DNA of 64,000 bases, taken from NCBI RefSeq assembly GCF_013122565.1, contig NZ_CP053258.1. One strand, given 5' to 3'. Below are positions 47,947 to 49,361 of the stretch, piece after piece; positions within the stretch are counted from its first letter, which is position 1, and each line of letters opens with the position of its first letter. The notes under the pieces are model-generated. The model was given only the letters and a program-made list of their open reading frames with translations, was not told the origin of the DNA and made no database searches. The DNA is from Escherichia coli (lineage in GTDB: Bacteria > Pseudomonadota > Gammaproteobacteria > Enterobacterales > Enterobacteriaceae). A program made the translations under genes and the position numbers.

Positions 47947-48885
47947 TTAATGTTGCTGATTTTTCTCTTTAACTTTTGACCATGAGGGGCGTCGGTTACC
48001 GGAAAATTCCTTCTGCATTGACCAGTAACCAATCGGGAACTGCTTCACCATCACCCCGTTGATACCAATATCGACGGACAGATACTGGCCGTTGTTGATG
48101 CTGCCCTTGCGGATATACGCATCCGCGCTGCAGGTACCGGTATCGTACTGCTGCCATGTTGCGGTATCGCGGGCAGCAACATAAAAATCACCGAAAGCAC
48201 AGCCCGTCGCTGATTTGCGGTTCAGTATGGCAACGTAGTACTTAGTGTTGGCGATAATGGCGCAAGTGCTGCTCTGGCCGCCGCAGACCTGCCATAACGT
48301 TTTGCCACTGTCCCCCTTAAAGGTCCAGACAGTATTTGCCGGTGCGTCGTTTGCAGGTGTTACAGGCATTGCCGGTGGCTGCTGCACTGATGTAGCGTTG
48401 GGTACATCGCGGCGTAATATTTGTGCTTCTGCATCCCCGACATCGCCAAACATGTTTTCCTCTCCGCTGTTGTAATAAAAACCGGCAATAACATGCTCTG
48501 AGGGGATATACAGTATTTTAAGATAATGGTCACCGCAATTACCCCGCTCACAGACAGCCCCCAACAGCCACTTCTCGCCACCTACATCCACCGGTATTAA
48601 ACCACTGTCCGGGCCGTTCATTGCACCCTGCCTCCCTGTTAACCCGGAAAGTCCTGCTGACTTTAGCGCATCATCAAGGTCTTTCTTAAATACCGGATCC
48701 GCATCGTAAATGTTGCCCAGAAGAGGGCAAGAACCGTATCCGTTTTCATAATCACCTGCGTCAGGATCACAGCGCATTGCATCTGCTGCCGTTTTTGCAA
48801 CACCGGCGGCGTAAACTCCGGCGGAAATCAAACAAAGCGACGATATCAGCATTACCTGATTAAATGTACGTAAAACAAGAGACAT
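47947..48885 (-). CDS. Secreted two-domain hypothetical protein (312 aa) with N-terminal Ivy-like (C-x4-C-G) region
   Basis: Signal-peptide-like N-terminus MSLVLRTFNQVMLISSLCLISAGVYAAG; segment WLLGAVCERGNCGDHYLKILYIPSE resembles the Ivy loop region (CKPHDCG) but lacks the His; Pro-rich linker VQQPPAMPVTPANDAPA; Cys-containing C-terminal domain. Confidence 0.7.
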   Translation of the reverse strand: MSLVLRTFNQVMLISSLCLISAGVYAAGVAKTAADAMRCDPDAGDYENGYGSCPLLGNIYDADPVFKKDLDDALKSAGLSGLTGRQGAMNGPDSGLIPVDVGGEKWLLGAVCERGNCGDHYLKILYIPSEHVIAGFYYNSGEENMFGDVGDAEAQILRRDVPNATSVQQPPAMPVTPANDAPANTVWTFKGDSGKTLWQVCGGQSSTCAIIANTKYYVAILNRKSATGCAFGDFYVAARDTATWQQYDTGTCSADAYIRKGSINNGQYLSVDIGINGVMVKQFPIGYWSMQKEFSGNRRPSWSKVKEKNQQH

Positions 48886-48950
48886 GATTACTTTTATTCC
48901 ATCCTGTTTATATAAAAGAAACGGGCTCGGTTAAGAGCCCTGTAAAAGAT

Positions 48951-49361
48951 TTAAAAGTCAATGGTATTAAGACCGACATTCTTTTTGATGGAGGGGTCGT
49001 AAATAACAACGGTAAGATGGTCTTTGTCGGAAGAACGGACAAACTTAGCGGTGGCCTCACCACTGCATGTTGCATGACGGTTATAATCCATCATTTTACC
49101 TTTGCTGGTAGCAAGATTGACAACGATGATATAAGGATCATAACAGGCCGAACCTCCCGGACTGCTCAGCAAGGCATATTTGCCATCATCAGAGACACCA
49201 ATGAGGCTGCATATCCCGTCTTTTACATCCTCACTTCCGCACATCAGCTCACTTCCATCTTTCACACCAATTATAGTACGGGGTAATTTAACCTCTGTGG
49301 CATTAACTGATGCACTCAACAACAAACCTGAAACCATTAATGGAAATATGAATGCTTTCAT
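48951..49361 (-). CDS. Secreted hypothetical protein (136 aa), Cys-containing; weak MliC/PliC-like motifs
   Basis: Signal peptide MKAFIFPLMVSGLLLSASVNA; motifs SPGGSACY and LATSKGK loosely resemble MliC/PliC S-G-S-G-A and T-K-G signatures. Confidence 0.7.
   Translation of the reverse strand: MKAFIFPLMVSGLLLSASVNATEVKLPRTIIGVKDGSELMCGSEDVKDGICSLIGVSDDGKYALLSSPGGSACYDPYIIVVNLATSKGKMMDYNRHATCSGEATAKFVRSSDKDHLTVVIYDPSIKKNVGLNTIDF

Follow-up and report, generated by a model that had tools for sequence, protein, structure and literature searches.

A secreted Ivy-fold fusion protein and a free four-cysteine protein as a putative periplasmic inhibitor module of a CP4-57-like island in Escherichia coli

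Introduction

What do two adjacent genes for small secreted proteins do in the cargo of a decayed integrative island? The question is raised by a 64,000-nucleotide stretch of the Escherichia coli contig NZ_CP053258.1 (assembly GCF_013122565.1), referred to below as the window, in which two neighbouring genes on the minus strand encode proteins of 312 amino acids (aa; 47947..48885) and 136 aa (48951..49361). Both genes are 100% identical to genes of E. coli PapRG-06-5 that RefSeq annotates as 'hypothetical protein' (WP_000060628.1 for the 312-aa and WP_000642912.1 for the 136-aa protein). An earlier note, made from the letters alone, had compared the larger protein with the lysozyme inhibitor Ivy and the smaller one with the inhibitors MliC and PliC. 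The reading that we prefer, and to which we give a probability of about one half as a joint figure for the whole explanation, is that the locus is a two-gene periplasmic inhibitor module in the cargo slot that follows a YfjR-type regulator in a CP4-57/CP4-44-like integrative island, and that the Ivy-type loop of the 312-aa protein would enter the cleft of a lysozyme-fold glycosidase.

Results

Ivy relationship of the 312-aa protein

The 312-aa protein is predicted from its sequence to be exported by the Sec pathway and to reside in the periplasm. Its signal peptide (residues 1–26, 48808..48885; all features are on the minus strand) contains R6, a hydrophobic core at residues 11–20 (Kyte-Doolittle hydropathy 2.74) and an AXA-type cleavage site between VYA and AG, without a lipobox. 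The signal peptide of the 136-aa protein (residues 1–21, 49299..49361) has K2, a hydrophobic core at residues 5–14 and an AXA-type site between VNA and TE, again without a lipobox; both agree with the signal peptides proposed in the earlier note. No further hydrophobic segment is present in either protein, and the mature forms contain even numbers of cysteines, eight and four, respectively.

In the structural model, the first 28 residues have a predicted local distance difference test (pLDDT) score below 50. The signal peptide is followed by an Ivy-fold domain (residues ~27–160, 48406..48807), a Pro/Ala-rich linker of low confidence (residues ~161–184, 48334..48405; pLDDT <50 at residues 162–178), a four-cysteine beta domain (residues ~185–292, 48010..48333; C201, C208, C229, and C252), and a conserved, predicted-disordered basic tail (residues 293–312, 47950..48009; ...SGNRRPSWSKVKEKNQQH; pLDDT <50). 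The linker and the second cysteine-containing domain had been expected from the sequence. The family of this protein comprises 68 clusters, all from Enterobacterales, and its layout is a variable N-terminal domain, a Pro/Ala-rich linker that differs in length and sequence, and a highly conserved C-terminal domain with the basic tail. Some members are already named 'Ivy family c-type lysozyme inhibitor' by NCBI.

The match of the window protein to Pfam Ivy (PF08816) was marginal (E=0.059, residues 97–140); its alignment, too, sets the CERGNC segment on the Ivy loop. When family members were scanned singly, 10 of 30 matched at E<=0.001 and 25 of 30 at E<=0.1 (best 1e-9), so that the Ivy homology of the window protein is supported transitively. 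The top four matches of the family profile among PDB sequences were the four Ivy entries (E 0.11–0.29); their alignments put C112-ERGN-C117-G onto C-KPHD-C-G of Ivy, and the model of residues ~27–160 has the alpha/beta fold of Ivy. The segment C112-E-R-G-N-C117 (48535..48552), predicted to form a disulfide loop, is thereby the counterpart of CKPHDC, the signature motif of Ivy (PMC3660660). As far as profiles and the model go, fold and homology bear out the Ivy reading, and the parallel with the Ivy loop that had been drawn by eye holds.

C112 is invariant, and C117 is found in 28 of 28 members bearing the Ivy domain. The position of the Ivy loop His is occupied in these members by G (24), N (3), or S (1), and never by H; the missing His pointed out for the window protein is thus a property of the whole set. 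Nearly all members keep the loop form C-E-x-G/N/S-N/D/S-C-G, and relatives from Enterobacter have a shorter loop, CGSDC or CASDC. The cut-off of the Ivy equivalog model NF007443 (180 bits) was not reached: the window protein gave no match and its relatives scored 13–14 bits. Because the loop His, which is said to contact the catalytic residues of lysozyme in the complex of Ivy with hen egg-white lysozyme described by Abergel and colleagues in 2007, is replaced in all members, we file the 312-aa protein as an Ivy-fold relative, not an Ivy equivalog. Ivy (E. coli YkfE, Pseudomonas aeruginosa Ivyp1; PF08816; PDB 1GPQ, 1XS0, 1UUZ, and 4PS6) is the closest known system, although identity is only 11–16% and the loops differ, CKPHDC in Ivy vs. 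CERGNC, without His, in the 312-aa protein. Unlike Ivy, the latter has an extra N-terminal Cys pair (C39/C53) and continues beyond the Ivy domain through a Pro-rich linker into a second domain and a basic tail; it is island-borne, whereas Ivy is encoded in the core genome.

A match to DUF7908 (PF25485) in a few homologues was disregarded, as it fell on a low-complexity Gly/Thr/Pro linker (residues 128–226 of P0058).

The 136-aa protein and the shared four-cysteine domain

The 136-aa protein (C41, C51, C73, and C99) matches PHROG phrog_8968 (E 4e-37) and belongs to a rare family with 18 representatives among 1.84 billion proteins. Within it C41, C73, and C99 are invariant and C51 is present in at least 90% of members. 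The model is all-beta and confident (pLDDT 85.9), and a PDB sequence search found no solved structure in the four-cysteine family.

MliC and PliC, periplasmic or membrane-bound inhibitors of c-type lysozyme, are likewise small, secreted, and all-beta, with about eight strands, and bind lysozyme by motifs of the SxSGAxY and YxxxTKG types. Pfam, in which MliC/PliC is PF09864, gave no match for the 136-aa protein at E<=10 and none at E<=0.1 for any of 19 members of its family; no such inhibitor was among the PDB sequence matches, and the predicted fold was not their beta-barrel. The look-alike motifs SPGGSACY and LATSKGK, on which the earlier comparison was based, are not conserved in remote relatives, where only G-x-x-C-x-D and T-G-K persist. 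We abandon this comparison and place the protein in a separate four-cysteine family. Profile matches of the 136-aa protein to giant repeat proteins (P0097, P0102, P0104, and P0106–P0108) were treated as spurious, since those inspected (P0102, P0106, and P0107) are repetitive and share only short motifs such as SSNPGG.

Secondary-structure elements predicted for the 136-aa protein run collinear to those of residues ~195–290 in the 312-aa protein, the offset staying nearly constant (151–156 residues) and the common core being a helix and a seven-strand beta structure. The four cysteines of each protein are in register by predicted structure, by hidden Markov model (HMM) alignment, and by hhalign; in the C-terminal domains of the 312-aa family C201 is invariant, and C208, C229, and C252 occur in at least 90%. 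The narrow profiles of the two families did not give a significant match (hhalign E 0.03–0.07; shuffle p~0.19 for local and ~0.04 for global alignment). The profile was later enlarged with phage orthologues and paralogues. The enlarged HMM scored the C-terminal domains at 3.1–16.4 bits vs. a mean of −0.6 bits for composition-matched shuffles (99th percentile 4.3), the real median being reached by 1 shuffle out of 1160, and hhalign with the enlarged profile gave P=2.2e-4. From the collinear structure, the scores relative to shuffles, the register of the cysteines, and the hhalign result we conclude that the neighbouring genes very probably share one four-cysteine beta domain, of which the 136-aa protein would be a free, distantly related copy. 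In the model of the 312-aa protein, this domain has a shape resembling two propeller blades. The family proposed here (SPN3US gp181-183 type; PHROG 8968 / 5248) is previously undescribed.

Together with the basic tail, the domain occurs alone in Proteus, Providencia, and Morganella (PHROG 5248), C-terminal to Ivy-like domains of two loop types, and N-terminal to a YfjT-like domain in P0115/P0116, where the Pfam YfjT match is weak and BLASTP against K-12 YfjT gave E=0.001. YfjS and YfjT of the K-12 island CP4-57 occupy the cargo slot after YfjR, the same as the window pair, but show no significant similarity to it; YfjT gave nothing significant with either window protein (2.3 bits with the enlarged HMM), and a connection exists through the relative P0116, which joins a four-cysteine and a YfjT-like domain. 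YfjS was considered as a four-cysteine relative (BLASTP E=0.032, two Cys aligned) and was not supported by hhalign (P 0.05–0.1) or by the enlarged HMM (1.0 bit).

Two further associations of the domain were seen. In P0136 (184 aa), the N-terminus of a YeeP-like GTPase is joined to a four-cysteine fragment (…VAVLNHKSASGCVFGDFYIVARTDGNWQQ…), probably by a deletion fusing two island genes. A GYF_2 domain (PF14237) recurs with four-cysteine proteins: it is N-terminal, ahead of an apparent membrane anchor, in the Ivy-like/four-cysteine protein P0063 (Erwinia persicina, L025:6001-7146), and a separate GYF_2 gene (L006:5192-5731) lies just upstream of P0094, a remote relative of the 136-aa protein, in a dynamin/YjcZ/patatin locus.

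Gene pairing, distribution, and selection

In islands, the 136-aa gene is always followed by the Ivy-like gene with a fixed spacer of 65 nucleotides. At least 72 E. coli genomes, O157:H7 and O111:H8 strains among them, have this pairing, as do four Salmonella contexts and Serratia fonticola, so that the pair stood up to the gene-neighbourhood comparison suggested earlier. The Ivy-like gene was also found without the 136-aa gene, in Serratia, S. salamae, E. coli 2013C-4282, Enterobacter, and Erwinia. The dependence is thus one-way, of the 136-aa gene on its neighbour. The Ivy-like gene is present in ~1.5% of complete E. coli genomes. Every context examined was the same island type, and at most loci the gene is just downstream of a gene matching a YfjR-type regulator in size and position; that gene is annotated as WYL in L012, and none is shown in L026, L017–L020, and L021. 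Secreted genes of the IrmA family (PF18673, interleukin-receptor-mimic) adjoin four-cysteine genes in Proteus (L013:6642-7127) and at L026:5430-5876, which suggests that various kinds of secreted proteins accumulate in the neighbourhood of the four-cysteine gene.

The distribution bears on the possibility that the pair is a host-interaction factor. An animal lysozyme, perhaps not of c-type or bound by a non-canonical loop, would be inhibited, and gut strains including O157:H7 and O111:H8 would resist host defences, as was proposed for Ivy, PliC, and MliC. The Ivy homology fits this explanation, as do the animal- and human-associated carriers with their enterohaemorrhagic serotypes, the IrmA-family proteins in the same slot of Proteus-type islands, and the contribution of lysozyme inhibitors to lysozyme tolerance (PMC2267010). 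The key loop His is, however, missing in every member, the gene is rare among complete E. coli genomes, and no role is left for a phage-type partner, and we regard this explanation as quite improbable.

Both genes are under purifying selection, with a ratio of nonsynonymous to synonymous substitution rates (dN/dS) of 0.18 for the whole 312-aa gene and 0.12–0.21 for the 136-aa gene. Within the 312-aa gene, the values were 0.26 for the Ivy domain, 0.11 for the four-cysteine domain, and 0.08, the lowest, for the tail. One mosaic E. coli allele had a dN of 0.48 in the Ivy half and of 0.05 in the four-cysteine half. The conservation of the loop and the purifying selection on the Ivy domain both suggest that the loop still matters. 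This speaks against a non-inhibitor explanation, in which the two domains, Ivy-fold and four-cysteine, would serve the periplasm as generic modules for binding or scaffolding, for instance as envelope-stress or adhesion cargo like the YfjS/YafY/YfjT types, and the Ivy likeness would reflect ancestry only. The shuffling of domains in the slot (four-cysteine alone, with Ivy-like, and with YfjT-like domains), the loss of the canonical inhibitory residue, and the varying loop length (CGSDC, CASDC) are in line with it. As the disulfide loop is kept in nearly all members and the Ivy domain is constrained, we find this explanation rather unlikely.

The most constrained part of the 312-aa gene, the basic tail, has the pattern SG-N/R-R/K-P-S/R-W-x-K-x-K, in which R299, P300, W302, K304, and K306 are nearly invariant across the family. 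All architectures of this four-cysteine sub-family have such a tail after the domain, and the 136-aa/phage sub-family lacks it; by its sequence, the tail looks like a short linear binding motif.

Relatives in large phages

A tblastn search with the 136-aa protein revealed full-length homologues in 48 phage records (40–46% identity, E ~1e-31 to 1e-34). The 25 matches listed are phages of 197–251 kb that resemble SPN3US, phiEaH2, and Asesino and infect Salmonella, Erwinia, E. coli, and Proteus. The 312-aa protein had no match in the phage records searched. In SPN3US and phiEaH2, the orthologue of the 136-aa protein (SPN3US_0182) lies between two more secreted proteins that are recognised by the family HMM (upstream copy, E 4.5e-9 and 6e-12; downstream copy, 8e-8 and 4e-8). 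The three paralogues form a tandem array with baseplate genes on one side and an SMC-like gene on the other. A remote metagenomic relative on a 190-kb phage-like contig has the same gene order. The gp182-type protein of these arrays (SPN3US gp181-gp183, phiEaH2 gp105-gp107; PHROG 8968) is 40–46% identical to the 136-aa protein along its whole length and shares the signal peptide and the four cysteines with it; the phages have three tandem paralogues without an Ivy-like domain, whereas the island has one copy adjoining the Ivy fusion.

All genes of the arrays (SPN3US_0181-0183, L009:5487-6808; phiEaH2 gp105-107, L010:4492-5821) are annotated as hypothetical. They are preceded by a gene for a membrane-anchored or lipoprotein-like protein of 133–144 aa (SPN3US_0180), and the gene on the far flank is SMC/SbcC-like. 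No literature was found on SPN3US gp180-183.

These relatives raise the alternative of an anti-phage or superinfection-exclusion module: the periplasmic proteins would block the peptidoglycan hydrolase of the virion or the injection, as Spackle blocks gp5, one protein having been taken over from large phages or being common to them and the island. Most of the 136-aa family comes from phages (the 48 records and the phage-like contig), its phage copies lie in a conserved block from baseplate genes to the SMC-like gene, the Ivy fold is that of an inhibitor of lysozyme-like enzymes, conflict genes of other kinds are present in the island (antirestriction, CbtA/CbeA, and a YeeP-like GTPase matching LeoBC), and the Spackle precedent is documented. 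PADLOC, however, gave no match for either protein, phages yielded no homologue of the 312-aa protein, and the literature search returned nothing on the role of the phage proteins; we judge this alternative unlikely.

A more speculative and, in our estimate, improbable combination sees in the four-cysteine domain a propeller fragment of two blades from which rings are built. The C-terminal domain of the 312-aa protein would join with the free 136-aa protein in such a ring, as the phage paralogues would with one another, and the periplasmic hetero-oligomer would display several inhibitory loops of the Ivy type. In large phages the ring would protect the wall of the infected cell or keep rivals out, and its capture by the island would serve to block the enzymes with which such phages pierce peptidoglycan. 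If true, this would add a novel type of anti-phage or superinfection-exclusion device acting in the periplasm.

Island context

The host element is a decayed integrative island of ~33 kb at a tRNA-Ser gene beside ghrA/csg, bounded on one end by a broken integrase. Directly upstream, the cargo slot is preceded by the gene for a WYL-domain regulator (49845..50552; PADLOC WYL E 3.6e-18). This regulator is orthologous to K-12 YfjR (49% identity, E 3e-70), and because of this orthology the slot corresponds to ypjK-yfjS-yfjT of CP4-57. The CP4-57 analogy of the earlier note therefore stands for the position, yfjR-ypjK-yfjS-yfjT, and fails for the proteins, neither of which is significantly similar to YfjS or YfjT. 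In the direction of transcription, the genes are the YeeP-like GTPase, the WYL regulator, open reading frames (ORFs) of 48 and 71 aa, the 136-aa gene, and the 312-aa gene, followed by DUF932, antirestriction, RadC/JAB, YeeT, YeeU/CbtA, DUF5983, DUF957, and DUF4942 genes; the pair lies between the DUF932 gene and the WYL regulator, as had been described.

A strong terminator-like hairpin (12 pairs and a T run, 47895..47922) is located 3' of the 312-aa gene. A weak one between both genes (6 pairs and a T-rich tail, 48923..48940) is a consensus match only, terminator-like sites in the region being no commoner than in shuffles. The motif ATAAACAGGATG(G)AATA is present just 5' of both start codons (49362-49385 and 48886-48915) and spans the likely ribosome-binding site; it may be a duplication remnant or a common translational signal.

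The 48-aa ORF (49695-49841) encodes a zinc-ribbon peptide of the CxxC...CxxC type (MKIRRIIPGNPTSGKRCPDCGSY...CRDCGCEWGKDNGYL) and, with the 71-aa ORF (49467-49682), lies between the WYL regulator and the 136-aa gene. Both occur at the equivalent place in islands of Serratia, Salmonella, and other E. coli (48–49 and 67–71 aa; L002–L005, L012, and L017–L020). The WYL regulator, an intact ORF of 235 aa in the window, is annotated as frameshifted in NZ_CP048605.1 (L001:14046-14752), a genome otherwise 99.9% identical, in which DUF5983 and yeeT are pseudogenes; these lesions indicate that the island is decaying. An AT-rich block at ~52000-53600 (29–34% GC vs. ~52–58% in the surroundings) contains a gene for a 290-aa winged-helix (CadC/ToxR-like) regulator overlapping a gene for a 162-aa membrane protein. 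It is flanked by the island core on one side and by an IS66 remnant and a fimbrial operon on the other, and is probably a separately acquired cassette.

Discussion

Read most economically, in our analysis, the locus encodes a putative inhibitor module of the periplasm. Like Ivy, the Ivy domain of the 312-aa protein would reach with its loop into the active-site cleft of a peptidoglycan glycosidase that has the lysozyme fold. Its specificity would differ from that of Ivy, since the His that binds the catalytic site is replaced by Gly, and the target would then be other than a canonically bound c-type lysozyme. Candidate targets include lytic transglycosylases and muramidases, whether they come from an incoming phage, from a competitor, or from the cell itself. 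Control of endogenous transglycosylases is itself a further rival reading. The four-cysteine domain and its free paralogue may supply anchoring, oligomerisation, or a second binding surface. Given the phage affinity of the 136-aa family, a phage-related target is attractive, though unproven.

The window proteins are beta-rich, whereas T4 Spackle is described as helical, and no sequence or fold relation between them is expected. The analogy with Spackle (gp61.3, which inhibits the tail lysozyme gp5) is functional only, that of a small secreted inhibitor of a lysozyme-fold enzyme encoded by a mobile element and acting in the periplasm. As a periplasmic tail-lysozyme inhibitor, Spackle is a case of superinfection exclusion by a mobile element (PMC7677548, PMC7650644). 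Ivy proteins inhibit c-type lysozyme strongly (PMC2267010, PMC10139938) and lytic transglycosylases in vitro, the latter weakly in the case of E. coli Ivy (PMC10139938, PMC3660660).

Several points weigh against the inhibitor module. The window 312-aa protein is itself under the Pfam threshold and matched no NCBIfam model, the loop His is absent from all 28 members with the domain, and E. coli Ivy acts weakly on lytic transglycosylases (PMC10139938). The model of the four-cysteine domain in the 312-aa protein is of moderate confidence (pLDDT ~60–85), and the homology of the two four-cysteine domains is significant with the enlarged profile only, not in the first-pass comparisons. PADLOC had no match for either protein, and the annotation of the island contains no hydrolase partner or toxin; the suggestion of the earlier note that the pair is immunity cargo thus finds no support in cis.

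Few proteins are known to inhibit lysozyme-fold enzymes, and for Ivy, which is one of them, it is still debated whether the physiological target is the lysozyme of the host or the lytic transglycosylases of bacteria. The conserved branch described here is carried on islands, retains the disulfide loop, has the His replaced, and includes a second domain; it offers a natural specificity variant for asking what Ivy-fold proteins target. The four-cysteine domain adds an undescribed family of small secreted proteins, common to CP4-57-type islands (those of O157:H7 and O111:H8 strains among them) and to large enterobacterial phages, in which the closest other relatives of the 136-aa protein occur. 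The slot after YfjR becomes concrete as a carrier of shuffled periplasmic modules (Ivy-like, four-cysteine, YfjT-like, and IrmA), and its proteins are candidates for a periplasmic phage-bacterium conflict outside current defence catalogues such as PADLOC.

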